Assembly (NCBI GenBank): GCA_963663765.2
Contig: CAXXUA010000007.1
Location: 1-64,000, forward strand
Origin: Candidatus Poribacteria bacterium
Lineage (GTDB): Bacteria > Poribacteria > WGA-4E > WGA-3G
Length of the DNA stretch: 64,000 nucleotides
Direction: 5' to 3'
Shown: one piece after another, positions 33,678 to 64,000 of the stretch
Position numbering within the stretch: position 1 is the stretch's first letter
Layout of the letters: each line of letters starts with the position of its first letter
Notes under the pieces: generated by a model
Seen by the model: the letters and a program-made list of their open reading frames with translations, nothing else
What the model was told of the DNA's origin: nothing
Database searches by the model: none
Made by a program: the position numbers and the translations under genes

Positions 33678-34324
33678 TTGGGATATGCTATCCGACAGAC
33701 AGCAGTTGTATGTGCATCACAATACCAGAAATATCCATCCCAGTAGGTCATGCCGTGCGGTTCAGGATGTGGTTCAGGTATTTCTATTTTATTACTAAGG
33801 CTGCCATTTTCTGTATTGAGTTGATATATCGCGCGATGATTGGTTTCAACGCACCAAAGTTCATCTGCGATCCAAGCGATTCCGTGGGGTCTGTCTCCAG
33901 GTGCAGGAAATGAATGCATTACTGTGAAATCGTTTTCAACATCAATTTGATAGATTGTTGCAGATGGCGGTACTGCCATCCAGAGTTTGTTATCACGCCA
34001 TTCCAGGCCGTGCGCGCCTGTCTGTCCTGCACCGGGTGTATCATAAGATGCAAGTGTCTTGCCGTTTTCTGGGTCAGTCAGCAGGATTTCACAACTATAG
34101 GTAGACGCAAGCCAAAGGTTTGTGCCAGTGTGTGTAATGCCGCTGCCTTTGTCGGAGTCGGTTGCAAGTGTCTTTTTTACTGTCCCATCATAAGAGACTA
34201 AATGCACCTCGTCTGTTTGTTGGTCGAGTATCCAGAGTCCTTCTTTGATGGCTTGCATACCGTTGGGTTGTGGTCCTGGCGCGTCAAACATTTTTTCGAT
34301 ATTTGGCATGTGATGTCTCCGCAT
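33674..34324 (-). CDS. Small beta-propeller protein (glutaminyl cyclase/Vgb-like)
   Basis: Repeats PGPQPNGM, GAHGLEW, RPHGIAW, EPHGMTY. Confidence 0.7.
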   Translation of the reverse strand: MRRHHMPNIEKMFDAPGPQPNGMQAIKEGLWILDQQTDEVHLVSYDGTVKKTLATDSDKGSGITHTGTNLWLASTYSCEILLTDPENGKTLASYDTPGAGQTGAHGLEWRDNKLWMAVPPSATIYQIDVENDFTVMHSFPAPGDRPHGIAWIADELWCVETNHRAIYQLNTENGSLSNKIEIPEPHPEPHGMTYWDGYFWYCDAHTTAVCRIAYPK

Positions 34325-34348
34325 ATGGATGTCTTGTTTCGGTTCATT

Positions 34349-34477
34349 TTATACGGTAATAGGTGAGGTGTCAATGGTATTATTGATATCGTTTGTTGGG
34401 TTCGCGAAAATTAGATTTTGCCTATCTCTGATGGTTAAAGTTGAAAAACATCGATCGGCAAATAACCTCAATCTCAT
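34349..34477 (-). pseudogene. Possible truncated DUF5615 (PIN-like toxin) remnant
   Basis: TAATG overlap with DUF433 stop; MRLRLFADRC start; stops after 42 aa. Confidence 0.5.
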
Positions 34478-34701
34478 TAAGCGACTTCCTCAAATTCTGC
34501 TAACTCACGAGCATAATCCAGACAAGCATGAATGTGCATTACTTTTAGGTCAGGAAATTCTGCAATAATTTCATGTGCTGTATATCCTGCTGCCAAGTAT
34601 CCAAGTAAGAGACTAACTGGAATCTGCGTGCCTTTTATCCGCGGTTTTCCCCGTAATATCTCTAATGTGCTAATAATATGATCTCTCCAATTAATTGGCA
34701 T
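34477..34701 (-). CDS. DUF433 family putative antitoxin
   Basis: GKPRIKGTQIPV, EIIAEFPDL, IHACLDYA. Confidence 0.9.
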   Translation of the reverse strand: MPINWRDHIISTLEILRGKPRIKGTQIPVSLLLGYLAAGYTAHEIIAEFPDLKVMHIHACLDYARELAEFEEVA

Positions 34702-34794
34702 GTGATTTTTTCCTATTCTGTTGTGAAGTTACCGTGTTTTAGAGCATTCGGAGTTTCGCATACAAGAACCAAATCTATGTTTTATCAAAGCCTG

Positions 34795-35037
34795 TTAACG
34801 TTCTCGCTTAGCATAGCCTGGTTGATAGTCGTTGATGAATCTTGTTAATCCTTCTCCTTCTTTCGCCAATTCTTTCATCTCCTCAACGTCATCCTTACCT
34901 GCACTCTCATAAGTATACAGATAGATTCTACCGCTCGTAAACTGGATTCTGATAAATTTAGCTCCCGCTTCATAAGCAGCGATTCCCGAATTTCCATGAA
35001 GATTACCATATCGTTTCATGCGTTTTTTCTTTTGCAT
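34795..35037 (-). CDS. Small KTSC-like protein
   Basis: SGIAAYE, IRIQF, YLYTY, GLTRFIN; AGGAG RBS. Confidence 0.65.
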   Translation of the reverse strand: MQKKKRMKRYGNLHGNSGIAAYEAGAKFIRIQFTSGRIYLYTYESAGKDDVEEMKELAKEGEGLTRFINDYQPGYAKRER

Positions 35038-35118
35038 GGGTTTCCTCCTATGTGAGAACTATAGTTTCGTCTATTATAGCACATTCGAAACTTTTTGTTA
35101 GATGAAATTACTCATTTT

Positions 35119-35399
35119 TAGGGTTATTTAGTTTTAAGAGTATTCTGTTATTGAGATTTACTGAAAGTTAATACCCCAGGCCGGTAGGTGCGGTTAGAAA
35201 CCGCACCGAATCCTAATAGGGAAAGTTGCCATGAAGGTTTTTGATCCAAATTCAGCAGAATACGCCAAATCAACGGTATGAATGTTATATAGCATTCCCC
35301 GTTTGGTATTCTGCATTGGTTAGAAACCGCAACTACCAGCATGGAATATATAGCATGTGTTAAAAATTCGCAAGAAATACCTGAAACTAAATAACCCTG
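35119..35399. mobile_element. CAGGG-ended (ISAs1-like) MITE with REP pair and hairpin cargo
   Basis: 15-bp perfect IR AGGGTTATTTAGTTT; 9-bp direct repeat ACTCATTTT (35110-35118, 35400-35408). Confidence 0.8.
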
Positions 35400-35412
35400 A
35401 CTCATTTTGGGT

Positions 35413-35835
35413 TTACGGGCAAGTGTCCTTGGTTAGCAAGTGTTTATGTGATTTTGTTTTGTATACTTTTCCTTGAGATACATGCACCTTAAAATCTGCA
35501 ATCAATTTATTATCTTTGGAGATCAAAACTTTTACTTCCGCAATGAGTGCTAATGCAATAATGTGCGGATCGTCTGATTTAATTTCGTCTTTTATTTTAT
35601 CATTTTTTTCTTGCACATCTTGGGCTAATACTAATTTGAGTTTACCCCTTCTTTGCAGTTGTCTTCTTAACGTGTACCCACCTCCTTTATCCCATTCCTT
35701 TCTAAATTTCTCGGTATCAGAGTAAACAATTTTGCCGTTTTTTCTTTCTAACCACTGGTGCACAAACTTCAGATCTTCATCAACTGGATCCTTTTTAAAT
35801 CTACCAATCAAATTAACATCTAAAATAGCACACAT
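35413..35835 (-). CDS. PIN-domain nuclease
   Basis: AILDVN, SDDPHIIALA, LISKD acidic motifs; starts 2 bp after the ATPase stop. Confidence 0.8.
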   Translation of the reverse strand: MCAILDVNLIGRFKKDPVDEDLKFVHQWLERKNGKIVYSDTEKFRKEWDKGGGYTLRRQLQRRGKLKLVLAQDVQEKNDKIKDEIKSDDPHIIALALIAEVKVLISKDNKLIADFKVHVSQGKVYKTKSHKHLLTKDTCP

Positions 35836-35837
35836 AG

Positions 35838-37169
35838 TTAATCCTCAAAACCCATGAGTCGGTTAGTTTCTTTTAAGAAAAATTTACCATAATGTGGCGG
35901 CACACCTACCATATTTGCCATTTTGTCAAAACCGATATTATGCACCTTTACGATATTTCCCTTTGGTTCAAAGTAGATTAGGGATACATCTTCAGGTTTG
36001 ATGTTTCCTTTTCTTATTTCAATGCGTGCACGGTCAATCATGTAATCACTGTGTGTCTCAATTATGAATGACCTATTCCCTTGGCTTGTAAAGTTTGCTA
36101 ATAAAGAAGATAGTTCTGCTTGTGCCCTTGGATGCAAGTGCACCTCTGGCTGTTGTAATAAGAAATAAGACATATCCTCATAATCAGGTTGAGTCCTCTT
36201 GCGAATACCGTGATTTAGTATTTGCACCAAAATTGGCAAAATTTGGCTGACACCGTAGCCGACATCGATTATATTTGAAGTAGGTCCTCGGACCTTGAAT
36301 TGTAATTGGAATGGTCCGCCAAGAGATCGTCCAAAGTTTTTTATTTTTATGTCTTGGAAGAGTCCAGAACTTATCCCAAATTCGATTAGTTGTTGTTTTA
36401 GTATTTCCCATTCCTTTTTTTCAGTCGCCTCTATTCGCATTAGTAGCATCGGGACATCACTGCCTTCTGGATCATCAAATTCCCGTGTTGGATCGTAAGT
36501 ACGTTTAGGTCGTGATCTAATCGGCGATGTACTAAATACAGATAAACTACCAAAGGAATCCCACGGTCGGTAATCACCTGTTCCTATATAGTGATTCTTT
36601 TTACTTAGATATTCCTCTAAGGCAATTTCTGCATCAGATTCATCTCTGAAATGGAGTGAAAGTATTTTAATATAAGGTGGAGTTAAGGTATCAGTTCCAC
36701 AAATTATTTGATATTGATTTCGTTTTTTATCATAAGAGGCTAAACGCACAGTCTTTGCGATTTGTTGTCCAGTTTCAAGAATGACTTCACCATCAACGAA
36801 TTTCACTCTTATTGAACTAACAGTCGGCTCAATTCCTCCTTTTTTCTCAACAAATTCAACTGTCACTTCAACATTTTCATTACTATATCTACCTGCAAAA
36901 CTATATCTACCCGTAAACCCGAGCTTAAAATATTTTTCTTTTTTCTTACTATTTCTGACAATATCTCGGTAGGTTCCCAGTGAGTAGGGATAAGGATTAA
37001 TATCTAACTCTCCATGTCGTAAATAATTTGCTAATACATGAAAACATGCAAGTGTAGTCGTCTTACCGGTGCTGTTTTCTCCAACCAAGAAGGTTAACGG
37101 GCGGATTTCAAGTGTTTGCCGTCCAGCAAAACAACGGACCTCTTCCATTGTAAATTGTGTAATGCTCAT
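35838..37169 (-). CDS. ABC-type/AAA_21 ATPase with DUF3696-like C-terminus
   Basis: GENSTGKT, DVGYGVSQILP, LLQQPEVHLHP, IIETHS. Confidence 0.9.
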   Translation of the reverse strand: MSITQFTMEEVRCFAGRQTLEIRPLTFLVGENSTGKTTTLACFHVLANYLRHGELDINPYPYSLGTYRDIVRNSKKKEKYFKLGFTGRYSFAGRYSNENVEVTVEFVEKKGGIEPTVSSIRVKFVDGEVILETGQQIAKTVRLASYDKKRNQYQIICGTDTLTPPYIKILSLHFRDESDAEIALEEYLSKKNHYIGTGDYRPWDSFGSLSVFSTSPIRSRPKRTYDPTREFDDPEGSDVPMLLMRIEATEKKEWEILKQQLIEFGISSGLFQDIKIKNFGRSLGGPFQLQFKVRGPTSNIIDVGYGVSQILPILVQILNHGIRKRTQPDYEDMSYFLLQQPEVHLHPRAQAELSSLLANFTSQGNRSFIIETHSDYMIDRARIEIRKGNIKPEDVSLIYFEPKGNIVKVHNIGFDKMANMVGVPPHYGKFFLKETNRLMGFED

Positions 37170-37191
37170 GATAATATCACGGAAAGACAGA

Positions 37192-37411
37192 ATTGCGAGT
37201 TTCCAGCGCGCTTACAAAGCACGCCTACCGTTGCGCATGAACCAATATTGCGAGTTTCCAGCGCGCTTACAAAGCACGTCTACCATTTGCACGTGAACCA
37301 ATATTGCGAGTTTCCAGCGCGCTTACAAAGCACGTCTACCATTTGCACGTGAACCAATATTGCGAGTTTCCAGCGCGCTTACAAAGCACGTCTACCATTT
37401 GCACGTGAACC
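37192..37411 (-). repeat. Tandem array of about four 56-bp units, no spacers
   Basis: Three identical units at 37244, 37300, 37356 plus one variant at 37192-37243; each has GTAG + hairpin CGTGCTT-TGT-AAGCGCG on the minus strand. Confidence 0.95.
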
Positions 37412-37418
37412 TATTTAA

Positions 37419-37427
37419 AGTATAGCA
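37419..37427 (-). promoter_or_regulatory. Extended -10 promoter TGCTATACT
   Basis: TGn-TATACT ends 7 nt before the first repeat; -35 match weak (TTCAGT). Confidence 0.55.
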
Positions 37428-37473
37428 TATTATGTAAGGAAACTGAAGATCATTTTACCTACAGTATGGTTGC

Positions 37474-40053
37474 TTAAGATCGTCTCATATCAATGCGGCG
37501 GAGGGCGATGTCTATGAGTAATAGGATTAGGGCTGCGATGAGGAAAGGTCGCCACAGATGTATCCGCAGTGTTACTGGGTTTTCAGGTGTGCGAAATACA
37601 TCTTCAGCGGAAATGTTGAATTTCCCACCAGACACATTTGAGAGCTGCGTGAGAAGTGATTCGTTAGCATTGTGGACAAGATATTCGTCTTGATAGGATA
37701 CAACGGTTCCGGAGACTTGGGTATTGACGATTTCACTCCCTTGTTTTTGTACGATGTTTAAGAAATAGGGACCGACATCTTGTGTTGGAAATTCAAGTTC
37801 ATATTTTCCGGGAGAAGTTTGTGAGATTGCGAGCTGTTTCTTTTTGAGATCAGGACCAATTAGGGAAATATCACTGTCTAACTCGTTCAGAAATTCACCG
37901 TCTTCACTCAATGCGTCAATGGTGAGATGTGCAATTCCCTTATCTTTTGTGATTTGTGCTTGAAAATTACTGAGTGTTGTTTTTCGCATTGTATCACGCA
38001 CGAGTTGTGTCCAAAATTTGCCATAACCCGGCCACTCTAACCAATCAGAAGCCCACCGTGCTTTTGCATCTGAAGTAAAAGCTACAGATTTGCCTAAACC
38101 GTATTGCCAGCTTGCAAGAACAGGATCGCCTCTGTCAGAGACGAGGAAAATCTCTGCAGTGGGTCTTGGTTGCGTAGCCACATATCCGAGTAGGAAGGGG
38201 GCAAGTTCCAAATCTATCCCGTTTAGAACTTGTGTCGGTTTGATGCGTTGCGGTATGAATGGTGTATCAATGATTGCAGACTTAGAAGCAGTGACTGTTT
38301 CTTTTGCGAAAATCTGTGGTACATTGTATGGGTCTTGTGTGAAATAGTCGCGTCCACCACCCCACTTGGCAAGATTCCCCAATAGGTTCATATCTGCACC
38401 AGAACCGATACCGACGGTTGATATTGTGATGCGTTCAGAATGCATTGAATTCGCGATTCCGTACCAGTCTCCACCTTGCGAATGACCATCACTCAGAACG
38501 ATGACGTGTTTAAGTTTCGCAGTTGTTTCGGTAAGTGCATAGTATGCTTGCTGCAATGCAGGATATAGGTTTGTTCCACCACCTGCAGTAATAGAACCGA
38601 CCTGATTTGAGATGAATTGCTTATCGGATGCATCGTGCATTTCAGTGATCCAGAATGGAGATCCGTCAAATGCGATGACACCGATTTTGTCGCGTGGACC
38701 GAGAAGTTCAACAGTTGCGCGTGCTGCTTCTTTTGCTAATTCTATCTTGATCCCACCCATACTGCCTGATTTATCTATCACTAACAGCATGGCTAATGAA
38801 GGTGTTTCTTTTTTCTTTTCGGTATCGGTGCGGACAGGTAGTACCTCTTCAATTGGGGTTTTATAGTATCCACCCAATCCAAAACTGTTTTCACTTCCGA
38901 GCATCATATATCCACCGCCGAGGTCTTGGACATAAGTGCGTATGAGTTCCATCTGTTTCTCACTGAGACGGTTGGCAGGAACATCACTGAAGATGATGAG
39001 TTCGTAGTTTTGGAGATCTGCTAATTCATTAGGGACACCTATGCCGTTACGGACATCCACACGAATCTTTGCTTCCTCAAGTACGCGCATAAGGTATCTG
39101 GTCTGAGACTCGTTTTCGTCAATTAGCAGCACTTTTGGTTTTCCAGAGACAGAAACTATTCCAAGAGCTTTGTTATTGTCGTAGCGTGTATCTTCTGTTG
39201 TTCTGCAAGTTACATCATAGGTCAACGTTCCGCTTTCCATAGATGTTTCCATGAAAACAATGCGATTCTCACCTTCAACGAGTCGAACCTCTTTCTTCGC
39301 AGCTTCAAATTTATTCTTGTATAGTTTGACTTCTGCTATATCCTCGTGATTGCTGTGGATAATTACTTCTAAATTGAAGGGTGCACCTTGTTTGACTTGT
39401 GCAGGAGCGTCAATTCGTTGTACCATGACTTCAGGTGAGTCGCTGGGATAGATAGGTACTGTGTCAATCTGTATGTCAAAGTCCTTTCCCCGTAGCCCTG
39501 TATGAATAGCATCACCTTGGGTTTCAATTCCGTCTGTGATTAGGACAATTCTTTTGTTTGCATTTGCTGGAAAAACACTCCATGCCGTTTCAATTGCTTG
39601 TGCAATATTTGTCGTGTCGCCGACATCCTCATCTTTCTCTAACCAAGTTTTCTTTATGTCTGCGAAATCAATTTTGGCTTCAGATTGTTGTTGATCTTGA
39701 GTATCTGGGGAATTTAGAATCTCTGCATTTTCAGTAAATGCTATAACACCAATTTGCTGATTCCCACTCTGGGATTTGAGTGCTTCATCAACAAATTCCG
39801 TTGATTTTTTCAATCCTTCTTCAGAGATACTGTCAGAAATATCTGTCAAAAACATCACAGCAAGTTTGTTATCCGTCTTTAGGTACTGGAAGTCTACCAC
39901 ACTTAGGATAAGTAGAAGTACTATAATGATTCTGACACATAAACTAACAATTCTCTGCGTCAGTGACAAGTCTACGAGACTGCGACGAAAGCCATAGTAA
40001 AGGACTGGTAATAAAACCAGCAGCAATAGTAAAAATGGGCGTGTTATTTCCAT
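37474..40053 (-). CDS. Membrane protein with two VWA domains and a glutamine amidotransferase-like domain
   Basis: DISDS and DKSGS MIDAS motifs, LITDG, LSDG, QYGLGKSVAFTSD. Confidence 0.85.
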   Translation of the reverse strand: MEITRPFLLLLLVLLPVLYYGFRRSLVDLSLTQRIVSLCVRIIIVLLLILSVVDFQYLKTDNKLAVMFLTDISDSISEEGLKKSTEFVDEALKSQSGNQQIGVIAFTENAEILNSPDTQDQQQSEAKIDFADIKKTWLEKDEDVGDTTNIAQAIETAWSVFPANANKRIVLITDGIETQGDAIHTGLRGKDFDIQIDTVPIYPSDSPEVMVQRIDAPAQVKQGAPFNLEVIIHSNHEDIAEVKLYKNKFEAAKKEVRLVEGENRIVFMETSMESGTLTYDVTCRTTEDTRYDNNKALGIVSVSGKPKVLLIDENESQTRYLMRVLEEAKIRVDVRNGIGVPNELADLQNYELIIFSDVPANRLSEKQMELIRTYVQDLGGGYMMLGSENSFGLGGYYKTPIEEVLPVRTDTEKKKETPSLAMLLVIDKSGSMGGIKIELAKEAARATVELLGPRDKIGVIAFDGSPFWITEMHDASDKQFISNQVGSITAGGGTNLYPALQQAYYALTETTAKLKHVIVLSDGHSQGGDWYGIANSMHSERITISTVGIGSGADMNLLGNLAKWGGGRDYFTQDPYNVPQIFAKETVTASKSAIIDTPFIPQRIKPTQVLNGIDLELAPFLLGYVATQPRPTAEIFLVSDRGDPVLASWQYGLGKSVAFTSDAKARWASDWLEWPGYGKFWTQLVRDTMRKTTLSNFQAQITKDKGIAHLTIDALSEDGEFLNELDSDISLIGPDLKKKQLAISQTSPGKYELEFPTQDVGPYFLNIVQKQGSEIVNTQVSGTVVSYQDEYLVHNANESLLTQLSNVSGGKFNISAEDVFRTPENPVTLRIHLWRPFLIAALILLLIDIALRRIDMRRS

Positions 40054-59730: not shown

Positions 59731-61599
59731 TTACCTTTCTGCGGGTGTGATTTCCCACAGCAGCACGGTGCCATCATCACTCGCACTTGCGATTGTGGTG
59801 CCATCCGGACTAAAAGATACGTTATAGACCCTACGTGTATGGCCTGATAATGTTCTTATGTGTGTGCCTATGTCTACGTTCCACAAACGGATGGTTGTGT
59901 CCCAACTTCCACTTGCGATTGTGGTGCCATCCGGACTAAAAGATACGCTATAGACCACACCCCTATGTCCTGATAATGTTCTTATGTGTGTGCCTGTGTC
60001 TACGTTCCACAAACGGATGGTCTCGTCCCAACTCCCACTTGCGATTGTGGTGCCATCCGGACTAAAAGATACGCTCTTGACATCTCTCGTATGCCCTGAG
60101 AGTGTTCTTATGTGTGTGCCTGTGTCTGCCTCCCACAAACGGATGGTGTTGTCCCTACTCCCACTTGCGATTGTGGTGCCATCCGGACTAAAAGATACGC
60201 TCTCGACATCTTCCGTATGCCCTAATAGCGTTCTTATGTGCGTGCCTGTGTCTGCCTCCCACAAACGGATGGTGTTGTCCCTACTCCCACTTGCGATTGT
60301 GGTGCCATCCGGACTGAACGACACGCTCCAGACCCAATACGTATGCCCTAATAGCGTTCTTATGTGCGTGCCTGTGTCTGCCTCCCACAAACGGATGGCG
60401 TAGTCCCTACTCCCACTTGCGATTGTGGTGCCATCCGGACTAAAAGATACGCTCTCGACATCTTCCGTATGCCCAGATAGTGTTCGTATGTGCGTGCCGG
60501 TGTCTGCCTGCCACAAACGGATGGTATTGTGCACACTCGCACTTGCGATTGTGTTTCCATCCGGACTAAAAGATACGCTCTCGACATCATCCGTATGGCC
60601 AGATAGTGTTCGTATGTGTGTGCCGGTGTCGGCCTGCCACAAACGGATCTCTTGCCTACTCGCACTTGCGATTGTGTTTCCATCCGGACTAAAAGATACG
60701 CTATAGACCCTACGCGTATGCCCTGAGAGTGTTCTTAAGTGTGTGCCGGTGTCTGCCTGCCACAAACGGATGGTGGTGTCCCAACTTGCACTTGCGATTG
60801 TGTTTCCATCCGGACTAAAAGATACGCTATAGACCACACCCGTATGCCCAGATAATGTTCTTATGTGTGTGCCTGATTCTACGTTCCACAAACGGATGGT
60901 TCTGTCAAAACTTGCACTTGCGATTGTGTTTCCATCCGGACTAAAAGATACGCTCTCGACCCAATCCATATGCCCAGATAGTGTTCTTATGTGTGTGCCG
61001 GTGTCTGCCTGCCACAAACGGATGGTGGTGTCATAACTCGCACTTGCGATTATGGTGCCATCCGGACTAAAAGATATGCAATTGACCAAATCCGTATGCC
61101 CAGATAGTGTTCGTAGGTGTGTGCCGGTGTCTACGTTCCACAAACGAATCTCTTGTCCACTCCTACTTGCGATTGTGTTTCCATCCGGACTAAAAGATAC
61201 GCTATAGACATCCCCCGTATGCCCAGATAGTGTTCGTAGGTGGTTTCTTGTGTCTGCGTTCCACAAACGGATGATTCTGTCCGGCGATCCACTTCCACTT
61301 GCGATTGTGGTGCCATCCGGACTAAAGGATACGCTCTCAACATCACCCGTATGCCCTGAGAGGAGGTCAAGTTCTTCACCTGTCTGTGCATCGTAGATCC
61401 AAACACCGATACTACCTGCTACTGCCAGCTTGCTGCCATCGTGAGAATAGGCAACATTCCCAGTAATCTGTCCTTTCCCGAGACGTACTTTTGCGTCTTC
61501 GGGTAGATGCCATTGCGATGAGTCTTGGGCATAGGTGTTGGTGGTAAAGGTTAGTGTTATGAATAGTGTTATCAAGATTGAATACAATATGTTTTCCAT
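59731..61599 (-). CDS. Secreted WD40 protein with 13 near-identical repeats
   Basis: Signal peptide, LPEDAKVRLGKG, 13 x SFSPDG units of about 126 bp. Confidence 0.95.
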   Translation of the reverse strand: MENILYSILITLFITLTFTTNTYAQDSSQWHLPEDAKVRLGKGQITGNVAYSHDGSKLAVAGSIGVWIYDAQTGEELDLLSGHTGDVESVSFSPDGTTIASGSGSPDRIIRLWNADTRNHLRTLSGHTGDVYSVSFSPDGNTIASRSGQEIRLWNVDTGTHLRTLSGHTDLVNCISFSPDGTIIASASYDTTIRLWQADTGTHIRTLSGHMDWVESVSFSPDGNTIASASFDRTIRLWNVESGTHIRTLSGHTGVVYSVSFSPDGNTIASASWDTTIRLWQADTGTHLRTLSGHTRRVYSVSFSPDGNTIASASRQEIRLWQADTGTHIRTLSGHTDDVESVSFSPDGNTIASASVHNTIRLWQADTGTHIRTLSGHTEDVESVSFSPDGTTIASGSRDYAIRLWEADTGTHIRTLLGHTYWVWSVSFSPDGTTIASGSRDNTIRLWEADTGTHIRTLLGHTEDVESVSFSPDGTTIASGSRDNTIRLWEADTGTHIRTLSGHTRDVKSVSFSPDGTTIASGSWDETIRLWNVDTGTHIRTLSGHRGVVYSVSFSPDGTTIASGSWDTTIRLWNVDIGTHIRTLSGHTRRVYNVSFSPDGTTIASASDDGTVLLWEITPAER

Positions 61600-61622: not shown

Positions 61623-64000
61623 CTATTTCAAAATAACCATTTTACGCAGGAAAGACACACTGTCTGCCTGCAGTTGAAAAAAATAAATACCGTTCGCCAC
61701 GCGTTCACCGAGATTGTTCCGACCATCCCAATGAGCAGCACTGCTTTGGGTTATGTAGTATCCCGCCCGTTGATGCCCCAATTCCAACCGACGCACAATA
61801 ACGCCACGCGCATCGTAAATCGTAATCTGGACGTCGCTGGCATTTGCCAACTGATACGGTATCCACGTCTCCGGATTGAACGGGTTTGGATAGTTGGATA
61901 AGAGTGCAGTCGTATCAGGAGATGGCTGAGCAGACGGCGCAGCACCCTCTACATCGGTGACATTGATTGTAACGGAGATTTTATCATTTTTGGTCTTTAC
62001 ATCTATCACATAAACCGTTACACTGTAAGATGACTTCGTTTCATAATCTAAGTTTTCTTTGGTTTGCAGTTGCCCTGTTGTGCTGACAATACTGAATGAG
62101 GCTGCGTCCGTGCCACGCAGGTAATAGCTGAACGCATCCCCATCAGGATCTTTTGCACTAATCCTTCGATCAATGTTCTGACCAGGTTCAGTGTTCTCCG
62201 CTACAGAGCGAGTTGTGCTGTTACCATCTATGAACCAAGGATACCTATTTCCAATATAGCTTGCTATCGTAATTCCCGTATCCTTGTCTAATATTGTTGC
62301 GATCGAACCGAAATCGGTTATCGGATTTCCATGGAGCGTTAGATACTTCAGCATTGTGAAACCTTCCAAATATGATATATCACTAATATTGTTGTTGGCC
62401 AGATATAGAGACTTCAGTGCGGTCATATCATCAAGTGCGGATATACCGCTGATGCTGTTATTACTAAGGTTGAGGCTGGTCAGTGCGGTCATATCATCAA
62501 GTGCGGATATACCGCTGATGCTGTTATTACTAAGGTTGAGGCTGGTCAGTGCGGTCATATCATCAAGTGCGGATACATCACTGATGCTGTTATTACTAAG
62601 GTTGAGGCTGGTCAGTGCGGTCATATCATCAAGTGCGGATATATCACTGATACTGTTATGATCCAGAATTAGAAATCTTAGACCGGTTATATTTGTAAGA
62701 GAAGATATATCATTGATGCTGTTTTCACCAAGACTAAGCAATGTCAGTGCGGTCATATTTGTAAGAGGAGATATATTACTGATGCTGTTTTCATCAAGAC
62801 TAAGCGATGTCAGTGCGGTCATATTTGTAAGTGGAGATATATCACTGATATTGTTATTCGCTATTTCAAGAAATGTCAGTGCGGTCATATCATCAAGTGC
62901 GGATATATCACTGATTTTGTTGTTATTGCTAAGATTGAGGTGAGATAGTTTTGTTAGATCATCAAGTGCGGATATATCGCTGATTCTATTCCTATTAAGT
63001 TTGAGAAATGTTAGTTTTGTTAGATCATCAAGTGCGGATATATCAACAATCTTATTATTTGCTAAATCAAGGGACTGTAACTCTGTAAGATTTTCCAGCG
63101 GCGATATATCCATGATATTGATATGATAAAGACTTAGATTTGTGAGTTGTGTCAAATTTGCCAACGGTGAAATATCGGTCAAATTGTTGAATCTGAAAGA
63201 TAACCATTTCAGTGAAATAAGCCCATCAAAGTCTCCTGTTTTGAGTGATGTAATTCCTTTACTTTGAAGATCAAGGCTCGTAATTGCTGCGAGATGTTCT
63301 GGTGTCACATCTTCAGCAGAATCCACGCCTGCGGTGGTAACAATTTCATCGCGTATTTGCGGTGTGCGTTCACTTACCGGCGTAATTGTAATTTCGGTCA
63401 CATCTGTGACACTGATTGTGACAGTGATACTATCACTCCCGCCATTCTCATCGGAGACAGAAATGGTTACCGTATAAGAGGTTTTCGTTTCATAATCAAG
63501 TGCGGCATTCGTCTGTAGCTGCCCGTTCGTGTTGACGATGCTAAACGATGTCGCATCCGTACCACTGAGAGTATATGTAAGCGTATCGTTATCTGCATCG
63601 GTTGCAGCAACAGGGTCTCCGATGTTCTGTCCAGATTCCGTATTTTCCGCAACAGACCGAGTCGTACTATCGCCATCGGTGAACATCGGTGCACTATTGA
63701 CAACTTGTTGCTGTTGTGAACTGATACTACCTATGATGCTGATTGTAACAACGATAGAGTTGCTCCCGCCATTCCCATCGGAAACTGTAACCGTGACGAA
63801 GTAGGTATCCTGTTGTTCCGAATTCAGCGGTGCTTTTGTTTGTAGCTGTCCTGATGTGCTAACGATCTTAAACGCTGCTGCATCTGTCCCACCGAGACTA
63901 TAGGTGAGCGTATCGTCATCTGCATCTGTCGCAACTACCGGGTTGCCGATATCCATGTCTGCCTCTGTGTCCTCAGTGATAGAGCGAGTTGTGCTATCGC
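61623..64000 (-). CDS. Cadherin + LRR surface protein with conserved C-terminal domain (5' end outside window)
   Basis: PVAATDADNDTLTY / LDYETK cadherins, internalin-type LRRs with 66-bp DNA repeats from 62415, NYPNPFNPETWIPYQL. Confidence 0.92.
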   Translation of the reverse strand, partial: DSTTRSITEDTEADMDIGNPVVATDADDDTLTYSLGGTDAAAFKIVSTSGQLQTKAPLNSEQQDTYFVTVTVSDGNGGSNSIVVTISIIGSISSQQQQVVNSAPMFTDGDSTTRSVAENTESGQNIGDPVAATDADNDTLTYTLSGTDATSFSIVNTNGQLQTNAALDYETKTSYTVTISVSDENGGSDSITVTISVTDVTEITITPVSERTPQIRDEIVTTAGVDSAEDVTPEHLAAITSLDLQSKGITSLKTGDFDGLISLKWLSFRFNNLTDISPLANLTQLTNLSLYHINIMDISPLENLTELQSLDLANNKIVDISALDDLTKLTFLKLNRNRISDISALDDLTKLSHLNLSNNNKISDISALDDMTALTFLEIANNNISDISPLTNMTALTSLSLDENSISNISPLTNMTALTLLSLGENSINDISSLTNITGLRFLILDHNSISDISALDDMTALTSLNLSNNSISDVSALDDMTALTSLNLSNNSISGISALDDMTALTSLNLSNNSISGISALDDMTALKSLYLANNNISDISYLEGFTMLKYLTLHGNPITDFGSIATILDKDTGITIASYIGNRYPWFIDGNSTTRSVAENTEPGQNIDRRISAKDPDGDAFSYYLRGTDAASFSIVSTTGQLQTKENLDYETKSSYSVTVYVIDVKTKNDKISVTINVTDVEGAAPSAQPSPDTTALLSNYPNPFNPETWIPYQLANASDVQITIYDARGVIVRRLELGHQRAGYYITQSSAAHWDGRNNLGERVANGIYFFQLQADSVSFLRKMVILK

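Follow-up and report, generated by a model that had tools for sequence, protein, structure and literature searches.

A tandem REP array in the leader of a poribacterial ATPase-PIN operon is very probably a recently amplified passenger

The array of 56-nt hairpin repeats that fills the 5' leader of an ATPase-PIN nuclease operon in a Candidatus Poribacteria bacterium is built from copies of a GTAG-tagged repetitive extragenic palindromic (REP) element. Very probably, it arose by recent local head-to-tail amplification of this element and is carried as a passenger by a cassette that works without it. The window analyzed here is the whole stretch of 64,000 nt at positions 1 to 64,000 of contig CAXXUA010000007.1 (assembly GCA_963663765.2), and all features of the locus lie on its minus strand. 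The original prediction had suggested a candidate defense or toxin-antitoxin system in which the PIN nuclease may cut the array into monomers that restrain an ATPase-PIN complex, with the caveat that the repeat might be a REP amplified in a 5' UTR. With 1352 copies of the element in the genome of this sponge symbiont and no such array in relatives, the caveat has become our favored answer.

The description of the locus on which that prediction was built is borne out throughout. Tandem Repeats Finder (TRF) places the head-to-tail array at positions 37192 to 37411 (period 56, 3.9 copies, 96% matches, 0 indels, score 405). Three of the four predicted units are letter-identical, and the gene-proximal fourth is about four substitutions and one indel apart. 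A distance of 22 nt separates the array from the ATPase ATG, and the PIN open reading frame (ORF) starts 2 bp past the ATPase stop codon. Each unit contains the expected GTAG and hairpin, the unpaired GTAG being followed by a 7- to 9-bp stem and a 3-nt loop, together with a linker that is confined to the ATPase-PIN locus. An additional G-U pair is available in the sense orientation, and the hairpin of the other strand is less stable. Folding of single units and of the whole leader was no better than that of dinucleotide shuffles (z of +0.19, -0.95, and +1.81), so that structure statistics argue neither way, and an Rfam scan of positions 34000 to 38500 returned no match at E ≤ 1.

Directly upstream of the array, an extended -10-like box (TG-n-TATACT, positions 37419 to 37427) can be read from the sequence. 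Transcription from it would begin at about 37412, where the array has its first base, in agreement with the start originally placed at the first repeat. The site is not listed by a sigma-70 scan because its -35 region is poor; its conservation in four of six aligned syntenic relatives (L036, L043, L029, and L037) supports the putative promoter, from which the array would be transcribed. As predicted, no terminator-like site was found between the array and the ATPase gene (37170 to 37411). The rest of the leader (22 nt, positions 37170 to 37191) is devoid of a Shine-Dalgarno-like motif, whereas 71 of 75 homologous loci have one (GGAG, GAGG, AGGA, or AAGG at -21 to -4). Since this motif has been lost in the window, the insertion may have altered expression in a consequential way. 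As a counterpoint to the passenger reading, the array lies exactly at the presumed start site and in sense orientation.

The hairpin itself is dispersed across the genome. A 23-nt motif comprising the GTAG and the hairpin occurs 1352 times at up to two mismatches (675 copies on the plus strand and 677 on the minus strand), compared to 0 copies for a reversed-pattern control; 15 genomes of the same genus have 0 to 26 copies each, and the motif is absent from 10 genomes of other genera. The copies form 303 clusters on at least 12 contigs, and 1043 of them stand in 104 same-strand runs of three or more, with up to 38 units and periods of 31, 32, 41 to 43, 46, and 56 to 57 nt. Neighboring copies form 977 direct pairs versus 72 inverted ones (REPIN-like doublets, mostly 43 or 46 nt apart). 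In 16 cases, including the ATPase-PIN array, the distance from an array of at least three copies to a downstream ORF of at least 100 aa is no more than 150 nt; the other 15 precede unrelated genes, such as those for OTCase, cytochrome bd subunit II, TruA, GNAT, SNF2 helicase, TauE, and ThuA. The position of the array is thus, by itself, no evidence of selection, and the core of the repeat unit is not confined to this operon. A crude ORF caller put 697 of the 1352 copies "inside" unmasked ORFs, in a test that masking makes circular; we read these cases as an artifact of long arrays opening spurious frames.

The gene-proximal unit has a canonical 35-nt REP core (positions 37199 to 37233), with 12 exact copies elsewhere in the genome and 190 at up to four substitutions, the majority within a longer MITE-like element. 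This core is probably the founder copy of the array. A nearby REP at about 35187 was rejected as a member of a high-copy family, its 23-mer occurring 3 times genome-wide. The poribacterial element matches the GTAG-tagged REPs described in the available excerpts of two earlier reports (Di Nocera et al. 2013, PMC3733652; Bertels & Rainey 2011, PMC3116915) as a short imperfect palindrome with an 8-bp stem, a 3-nt loop, one G-T pair, and an unpaired 5' GTAG. Further common traits are more than 1000 copies, a very uneven distribution between related genomes, and inverted doublets; a RAYT gene bordered by its own REP may be another. It differs in that the head-to-tail layout prevails and in that the candidate RAYT gene next to the family is only partly contained in the assembly. 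A literature search combining Poribacteria with "repetitive extragenic palindromic" retrieved nothing relevant, an unrelated review aside.

This candidate lies at the end of contig C10, as a partial gene with an array of the same REP immediately before it. Its resemblance to the NCBIfam profile "REP-associated tyrosine transposase" (NF047646) is weak (26.5 bits against a cut-off of 80, with 45 profile positions covered), and it shares 43% identity with the intact RAYT of the genome. Because the contig ends within this gene, which also carries an apparent frameshift in a homopolymer run, current mobility of the REP is only presumed. Flanking the intact RAYT (C4:621319-622077; 120.8 bits against the same cut-off) is another GTAG REP and not that of the array. 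The four strongest Y1_Tnp matches were rejected as the cognate RAYT; they represent almost the same IS200-type transposase, and the surrounding 1.5 to 3 kb contain no REP of the array's family.

Comparison with relatives shows that homologous loci lack the array. The original prediction called for a scan upstream of homologous ATPase-PIN pairs; among 73 homologous ATPase loci with at least 400 nt of upstream sequence, TRF (minimum score, 30) detected no upstream array with a period of at least 29 nt. The same scan returned only 7- to 14-nt repeats at 11 loci and a 14/28-nt low-complexity run at one. The gene upstream of the operon encodes a VWA/GATase1-like protein (Pfam), and the VWA-ATPase-PIN synteny is maintained in relatives, with a leader of about 30 nt where the window has the array. 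Two of them, L036 and L043, align up to window position 37415 and resume at 37178, the intervening gap being 26 nt compared to 236 nt in the window. Since the syntenic relatives keep both the -10 box and the leader of about 30 nt, the array is an insertion. Searched against the genomes of 25 relatives, it matched REP-core pieces of at most 45 nt, none at the syntenic site; the best three of these (L091 to L093) were rejected as syntenic sites, as none holds the ATPase.

Sequencing runs add information on closely related strains. In a near-identical strain from run X6 (6 differences over 294 flanking nt), position 37407 is joined to 37243 via 34 other letters, which indicates that this strain has fewer array units. 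Runs X1, on the one hand, and X2 and X4, on the other, come from two different studies and share the array junction sequences; one of these runs may be the source sample. The X1, X2, and X4 contigs end inside the array, so that these samples provide no copy number. Three identical units and recurring junctions could mean selection and not recency.

We propose that the REP underwent a lineage-specific burst in this genome, presumably mobilized by a RAYT tyrosine transposase. One copy would have inserted downstream of the -10 box and upstream of the ribosome-binding site in a preexisting two-gene cassette and would then have been duplicated, together with 21 to 25 nt of adjoining sequence, to yield three identical extra units. 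Any effect of the array on mRNA stability or translation would be a by-product.

The first gene of this cassette (positions 35838 to 37169) encodes an NsnB-like OLD-ABC ATPase of 443 aa, confirming the predicted ABC ATPase. Pfam assigns it to AAA_15 (4.6e-17) and AAA_21 (2.7e-13), and its best PADLOC match is NsnB (2.8e-39), followed by PDC-M55A (9.2e-37) and, more weakly, AriA (5.7e-20) and PtuA (4.3e-09). The NCBIfam PtuA model gives 23.3 bits, below its cut-off of 500, and a literature search for "PDC-M55" found nothing. All 36 family members contain AAA_15, and in their alignment the Walker A motif is invariant and the Walker B position is QQ in every member. Pfam DUF3696 was detected in 0 of the 36; the closest plasmid homologues of the ATPase are annotated "DUF3696 domain-containing protein."

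The second gene (positions 35413 to 35835) encodes a stand-alone PIN-fold protein of 140 aa. Pfam, NCBIfam, and PADLOC detected no PIN domain in the protein of the window, and Pfam detected one in 3 of 36 family members (best E value, 3.6e-4). The fold is apparent from the AlphaFold2 model (mean pLDDT, 92), whose best Foldseek matches are VapC PIN toxins (probability, 0.99 to 1.0) and whose top VIA-align match is 5x3t_B (Z, 9.8; rmsd, 2.9 Å over 120 residues), about 35 top rows being PIN proteins; the PIN call of the original prediction is thereby vindicated. In an alignment of 56 sequences, E47, D89, and D108 are invariant and D6 is at least 90% conserved; H91, D114, and D137 are likewise conserved, and 36 locus-derived sequences show the same pattern. 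As judged by secondary-structure positions without superposition, the acidic residues occupy the end of strand 1, helix 42-50, the N terminus of helix 90-99, and a site just past strand 103-105. Conserved acidic residues of the D-E-D-D type are described for PIN nucleases in the available excerpts of Li et al. (PMC12065111). Both ORFs of the window are intact and keep every invariant residue, and the conserved residues and the model suggest that the PIN protein is probably an active RNase.

This protein has the fold of VapC-type PIN toxins and acidic residues at the expected positions but differs from them in its genetic context, as no VapB-type antitoxin gene lies upstream and an ABC ATPase is coupled to it instead. 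A sequence-profile search of the PDB with the PIN alignment gave spurious coiled-coil matches alone (best E value, 0.0097), and tblastn of the PIN protein against plasmids gave no match. A shared origin with the genes downstream of DUF3696 ATPases on one Rhodococcus and one Bacillus plasmid found no support, hhalign with the PIN profile yielding probabilities of 1.3% and 1.8%.

The ATPase and PIN genes form a conserved cassette. Of the 67 loci where the ATPase is full and the downstream sequence long enough, 55 have an intact adjacent PIN gene; it is broken or missing at the other 12, among them the closest relative, L018. The pair is common to three phyla of sponge symbionts (55 to 63% identity), and its neighboring genes differ at the Latescibacterota and Caldilineaceae loci, those of L063 and L085 being unrelated by eye. 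The two proteins probably form a complex, as suggested by a model of the homologous L063 pair (two ATPase copies and one PIN) with an ipSAE of 0.63 (median of 3 runs) compared to 0.01 for the best of 3 controls. This value is reached by 116 of 157 solved complexes and by 2 of 215 mismatched pairs, although custom alignments and the 2:1 stoichiometry depart from the tool's calibration and the model may lean on a likeness to solved Septu and PARIS structures. At least 90% of the contacts agree between runs, with a partner pLDDT of at least 81, and they involve residues 399 to 424 of both ATPase copies, so that the PIN is predicted to sit between the two C-terminal tails.

This organization is reminiscent of Septu (PtuA-PtuB) and PARIS (AriA-AriB), two-gene operons in which an OLD-ABC-type ATPase gene is followed by that of a small nuclease, and the predicted dimer holding one nuclease adds to the likeness. 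The nuclease is an HNH protein in PtuB and a Toprim/DUF4435 protein in AriB, whereas here it is a PIN. The Menshen system NsnA-NsnB-NsnC, as presented in the available excerpts of Li et al. (2025, PMC12065111), is similar in several respects: NsnB as the best PADLOC match of the ATPase, the AAA_15 OLD-ABC class with GxG replacing the SGG signature, a PIN-fold protein gene immediately downstream, and an asymmetric PIN predicted between two ATPase C-terminal tails, as predicted for NsnB-NsnC. In the same excerpts, NsnC combines an inactive PIN-like N-terminal domain with a C-terminal nuclease effector, and the "inPIN" domains lack the acidic residues; the partner found here is a single 140-aa PIN domain that keeps them, without a C-terminal nuclease. 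NsnB has a DUF3696 domain as its C-terminal tail, for which Pfam gave no match among the 36 members of the present ATPase family. No NsnA (ParB-DUF262) gene stands beside the ATPase, the five DUF262 matches of the genome all being on other contigs, and the cassette is therefore Menshen/Septu-like in architecture but not a member of these systems. By analogy with Menshen, Septu, and PARIS, the cassette may have a defense role: the C-terminal tails of an NsnB-like ATPase dimer (or tetramer) would hold between them a PIN RNase capable of catalysis, which a trigger such as phage infection would release or activate.

How far the array takes part in such a system can be weighed against several explanations. 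It may have been exapted in cis and not as an RNA acting in trans: a structured leader would tune or silence a potentially toxic operon, with mRNA stability, ribosome access, or RNase entry sites as the means. The location between a conserved -10 box and the start codon, the loss of a Shine-Dalgarno motif present in 71 of 75 homologues, and the greater hairpin stability in the sense transcript would fit such a role, as would the broken or missing PIN at 12 of 67 loci, including L018, which suggests recurrent pressure to disable the module. Yet near-identical strains differ in the array, 15 unrelated genes are preceded by arrays of the same family, and both ORFs of the window are intact with all invariant residues, and we consider exaptation in cis unlikely. 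It is very unlikely that the operon's own ATPase-held PIN has come to bind or cut the sense-strand hairpins of the leader as a decoy or substrate, making the toxic module autoregulatory; if so, a link between the genome-wide load of REP transcripts and activation of the system would be possible. The regular 56-nt spacing beside the promoter might suggest iteron-like sites at which a DNA-binding protein regulates the operon, but the conserved cassette has no DNA-binding gene, the hairpin occurs 1352 times in the genome, and homologues lack the array, which leaves this explanation with next to no probability.

The transcribed array could also act as the RNA partner first predicted, similar to type III toxin-antitoxin (ToxIN) or retron systems: the PIN would process it to 56-nt hairpin monomers, and these would bind and restrain the ATPase-PIN complex. 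As in type III systems, tandem hairpin units directly precede an RNase gene and share its strand, and the PIN has kept its acidic residues. A ToxN/AbiQ-type toxin is the defining feature of type III systems, however, and the nuclease here is a PIN, with no terminator between the repeats and the genes. The repeats, which belong to a mobile element found genome-wide, are not conserved with the gene: the array is present at 0 of 73 homologous loci, and the pair is conserved without it at 55 of 67. The linker alone is locus specific, and it is missing in the near-identical strain; the fold energy is no better than that of shuffles, and no Rfam family matches. Although RNA binding has been proposed, in the available excerpts of Li et al. 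(PMC12065111), for PIN-like domains attached to NsnB-type ATPases, an RNA partner is most improbable, and this part of the original prediction is not sustained. Two of the three findings that were named there as refuting it have been made, namely homologues without upstream repeats and a repeat core scattered across the genome at unrelated genes.

The preferred reading, a REP amplified as a passenger, spares the effort that an RNA-guided or RNA-restrained defense interpretation would have directed to a false lead. The locus offers a clear case of a REP amplifying inside a 5' leader, with relatives that preserve the empty site and a sister strain that has a shorter array. The unusually large, strain-specific, and mostly head-to-tail REP expansion of this Poribacteria genome may be used to study RAYT/REP dynamics in uncultured symbionts. 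Furthermore, the compact pairing of an NsnB-like ATPase with a PIN that appears active from its conserved residues and predicted structure, without the sensor NsnA, represents a candidate minimal ATPase-nuclease defense or toxin module.

The minus-strand repeat array upstream of the ATPase and PIN genes occupies 37192-37411 (Tandem Repeats Finder [TRF]: period 56, 3.9 copies, 96% matches, score 405), with three identical units and a gene-proximal fourth carrying about four substitutions and one indel relative to them. The ATG of the 443-aa ATPase ORF (35838-37169, minus strand) lies 22 nt past the array end, and the 140-aa PIN ORF (35413-35835, minus strand) starts 2 bp past the ATPase stop. 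A TG-n-TATACT box (37427-37419, minus strand) would put the transcription start on the first base of the array; a sigma-70 scan did not list this box, which has a poor -35 element. The site scan found no terminator between the array and the ATPase gene. TRF, the ORF coordinates, and the site scan thus bear out the original prediction as a description of the array, its units, the spacing, the box, and the missing terminator. An Rfam scan of 34000-38500 gave no match at E ≤ 1, and the folding energies of the leader and of single array units were not better than those of shuffled sequences. Two further long tandem repeats in the window, at 59779-61356 (period 126 nt, 12.5 copies) and 62414-63045 (period 66 nt, 7.6 copies), are probably coding sequence of repeat domains.

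The array had been proposed to be an RNA partner of the two genes, cut by the PIN protein and restraining an ATPase-PIN complex. Our survey of homologous loci argues against this role. Taking one genome per species, we obtained 75 distinct loci with ATPase relatives (55-91% identity) from metagenome-assembled genomes of Poribacteria, Latescibacterota, and Caldilineaceae. None of the 73 loci with at least 400 nt of upstream sequence carries an array of period at least 29 nt upstream of the ATPase gene, even at the permissive TRF score of 30; the same scan returned only short-period repeats (7-14 nt) in 11 loci and a 14/28-nt pyrimidine-rich run in one. The order VWA-domain gene, ATPase, PIN is kept in many Poribacteria. 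In two homologous loci (L036 and L043), the alignment reaches window position 37415 and picks up again at 37178; these points are 26 nt apart there, versus 236 nt in the window. A -10-like box is found in four of six aligned relatives, followed by a leader of about 30 nt with a GAGGA-type ribosome-binding site. Since these relatives have the box and the leader without the array, the alignments identify the array as an insertion between the putative promoter and the ribosome-binding site. When the array was searched in the genomes of 25 relatives, REP-core pieces of up to 45 nt matched and nothing longer, and the best three, which were checked, were not syntenic.

Public sequencing runs contain contigs with identical unit junctions in two studies (run X1; runs X2 and X4), one of which possibly includes the source sample. 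In another run (X6), a near-identical strain, with 6 differences in 294 flanking nucleotides, has 37407 joined to 37243 via 34 other letters; this strain carries a shorter, differently built version of the array. The 34 letters replace 163 nt of the array. Along the gene strand, they include a unit-like stretch where GTAG runs straight into the linker with no hairpin; this one contig hints at exact gain or loss of the hairpin module at the GTAG.

The array belongs to the GTAG-tagged repetitive extragenic palindromes (REPs). Its gene-proximal unit has a 35-nt core, of which 12 exact copies and 190 within four substitutions are found elsewhere in this sponge symbiont lineage's genome assembly (6.35 Mb in 15 contigs, the window being on C7). 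The 23-nt heart of the core consists of GTAG and then a hairpin (8-bp stem, 3-nt loop) and occurs 1352 times at up to two mismatches (675 plus, 677 minus; 0 for a reversed-pattern control). In 15 congeneric genomes the count ranges from 0 to 26, with 0 in five of them, and ten genomes from other genera of the order hold none. Given this difference between the genome and its 15 congeners, the abundance of the REP is a lineage-specific (strain-specific) burst. The copies fall into 303 clusters, including 169 singletons, and 104 same-strand runs of at least three copies hold 1043 of them (77%), the longest having 38 units (examples are C2:50450-51432, C3:389850-391021, and C5:1544384-1546155). 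These runs prefer periods of 31, 32, 41-43, 46, and 56-57 nt, with linker lengths stepping by about 11 nt; neighboring pairs are direct in 977 cases versus 72 inverted, and most of the latter resemble REPINs, with a spacing of 43 or 46 nt. Most dispersed single copies, and about 190 copies of the core, are embedded in a larger MITE-like element (roughly 95-130 nt, ends inverted; C2:138198, C4:555355), also found in tandem (C4:595272-596066) with periods of 87, 95, 125-130, 151, 186, and 196 nt. The linker of the studied array is unique to its locus, the other 56-nt arrays having a C-rich linker.

Excerpts of PMC3733652 and PMC3116915 describe REPs with a GTAG tag and G-T pairs in their stems, clusters in which units are tandemly reiterated together with flanking DNA, and genes for REP-associated tyrosine transposases (RAYTs) flanked by their own REP clusters, with an abundance very uneven between related strains. 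The REP and RAYT arrangement of the present genome matches this description. One trait is unusual: head-to-tail arrays dominate here, whereas Di Nocera et al. (PMC3733652, in excerpt) describe them as under-represented in most genomes. An array of the studied family (GCAG variant, period 42-43 nt) lies directly upstream of a partial RAYT-like gene at the very end of contig C10 (C10:24593-25277, extracted as L014; gene start 24997). This gene is cut by the contig end, has an apparent frameshift in an A homopolymer run, and shows 43% identity to the intact RAYT over 54 residues and 26.5 bits over 45 profile positions (family cut-off 80). A REP also opens C10, which places assembly breaks at REPs. 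The intact RAYT gene (C4:621319-622077; NCBIfam NF047646, "REP-associated tyrosine transposase," 120.8 bits, cut-off 80) has tandem arrays on both sides, with periods of 118 and 37 nt (region C4:620760-622660, L013:600-2500). These consist of another GTAG-tagged REP, oppositely oriented; the gene and its arrays are a second REP/RAYT system of the same genome. In addition, four near-identical IS200-type Y1 transposase genes (C5:688634, C3:287718, C5:550867, and C5:353059) indicate an IS that is active now or was recently, and no member of the studied REP family was found within 1.5-3 kb of them.

In 16 cases, the studied array included, an ORF of at least 100 aa begins no more than 150 nt downstream of a REP array with three or more copies. 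The other 15 precede unrelated genes, among them those for ornithine carbamoyltransferase, cytochrome bd subunit II, TruA, a GNAT acetyltransferase, an SNF2 helicase, TauE, ThuA, and a DDE transposase. The genome-wide spread of the unit core, its arrays before unrelated genes, and the homologues without upstream repeats all contradict an RNA partner dedicated to this gene pair, and very probably the array arose by REP amplification and has no dedicated role. Nor does it qualify as a type III antitoxin: the array is not conserved with the gene, no terminator follows it, and the toxin belongs to another family, the known type III toxins being of the ToxN/AbiQ type versus a PIN protein here. The inserted array might have lowered or altered operon expression, since a Shine-Dalgarno-like 4-mer at -21 to -4 is present in 71 of the 75 homologous loci and gone from the window (leader 37170-37191), and since the array forms more stable hairpins on the sense strand. 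We regard such an effect as unlikely and retain REP amplification without a dedicated role as the preferred explanation.

The ATPase matches Pfam AAA_15 and AAA_21. In PADLOC it is closest to NsnB of Menshen (2.8e-39) and to PDC-M55A, an untested candidate (9.2e-37), with weaker matches to AriA, Old, GajA, and PtuA. A literature search found no paper naming PDC-M55, and PIN partners are not treated in the excerpt of preprint 10.1101/2025.07.10.664194. The closest homologues on plasmids, which share 25% identity with the ATPase across 99% of the length, carry the annotation "DUF3696 domain-containing protein" and are each followed by an overlapping hypothetical gene; Pfam DUF3696 matched 0 of 36 members of the ATPase family. 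Walker A is invariant in the 36 aligned members, while the Walker B position (residues about 338-347) has QQ instead of the usual acidic pair, then PE-x-HLHP, in all 36, suggesting that the protein binds ATP with altered hydrolysis.

The 140-aa protein itself has no match in Pfam, NCBIfam, or PADLOC. Among 36 homologues, three touch Pfam PIN, three touch DUF4411, which we take to be a PIN-clan family, and six touch the N terminus of the PADLOC candidate PDC-M11A; a language-model search placed the protein near clusters auto-named "PIN domain-containing protein." Its AlphaFold2 model (56-sequence alignment, mean pLDDT 92) has VapC-type PIN toxins as top matches by Foldseek and VIA-align (probability 0.99-1.0; Z 9.8, rmsd 2.9 Å over 120 residues). 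Four conserved residues, D6, E47, D89, and D108, occupy the sites where the PIN D-E-D-D set, as given in an excerpt of PMC12065111, would be expected. Just 3' of the PIN gene lie genes for a DUF433 protein (74 aa, 4.4e-19; 34477-34701, minus strand) and an 80-aa ORF without family match (34795-35037, minus strand), both kept in several relatives.

Using author-made alignments, we modeled two ATPase copies (425 aa) with one 140-aa PIN protein from the homologous pair of locus L063. The complex scored 0.63 (runs 0.62, 0.66, and 0.63) versus 0.01 for the best of three controls. Among solved complexes, 116 of 157 attain the complex's mark, and among mismatched pairs, 2 of 215 do; the runs share at least 90% of their contacts, with a partner pLDDT of 81 or higher. 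The PIN protein is predicted to contact residues 399-424 of both ATPase copies and residues 357 and 361 of one. The model supports binding of the PIN protein to the ATPase, although it may lean on likeness to the solved Septu and PARIS complexes. Its geometry is that of the NsnB-NsnC prediction excerpted from Li et al. (PMC12065111), in which the PIN-like domain is asymmetrically sandwiched between two C-terminal tails. The pair is nevertheless not a Menshen member, because NsnA is absent and because the ATPase is paired with a lone PIN domain, apparently active from its residues, whereas the Menshen partner is an inactive PIN fused to a nuclease. By analogy, the pair may resemble the ATPase-nuclease modules of Menshen, Septu, and PARIS in its working, and we lean toward a complex-forming defense or toxin module.

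Of the 67 loci whose ATPase is full length and whose downstream sequence is long enough, 55 have an intact adjacent PIN gene; in the other 12, with the ATPase intact, it is frameshifted, truncated, stopped, or missing, as in the closest relative, L018 (L018:4333-4763; ATPase identity 91%). In loci L018 and L027, the VWA and ATPase genes are also separated by 1.0-1.4 kb of additional sequence. In the Latescibacterota and Caldilineaceae loci the neighboring genes look unrelated, and no DUF262 gene was found near the cassette, indicating that the pair is a self-contained cassette. Its occurrence at 55-63% identity in sponge-associated members of these two other phyla (L061-L086) suggests that the cassette moved horizontally within sponge microbiomes.
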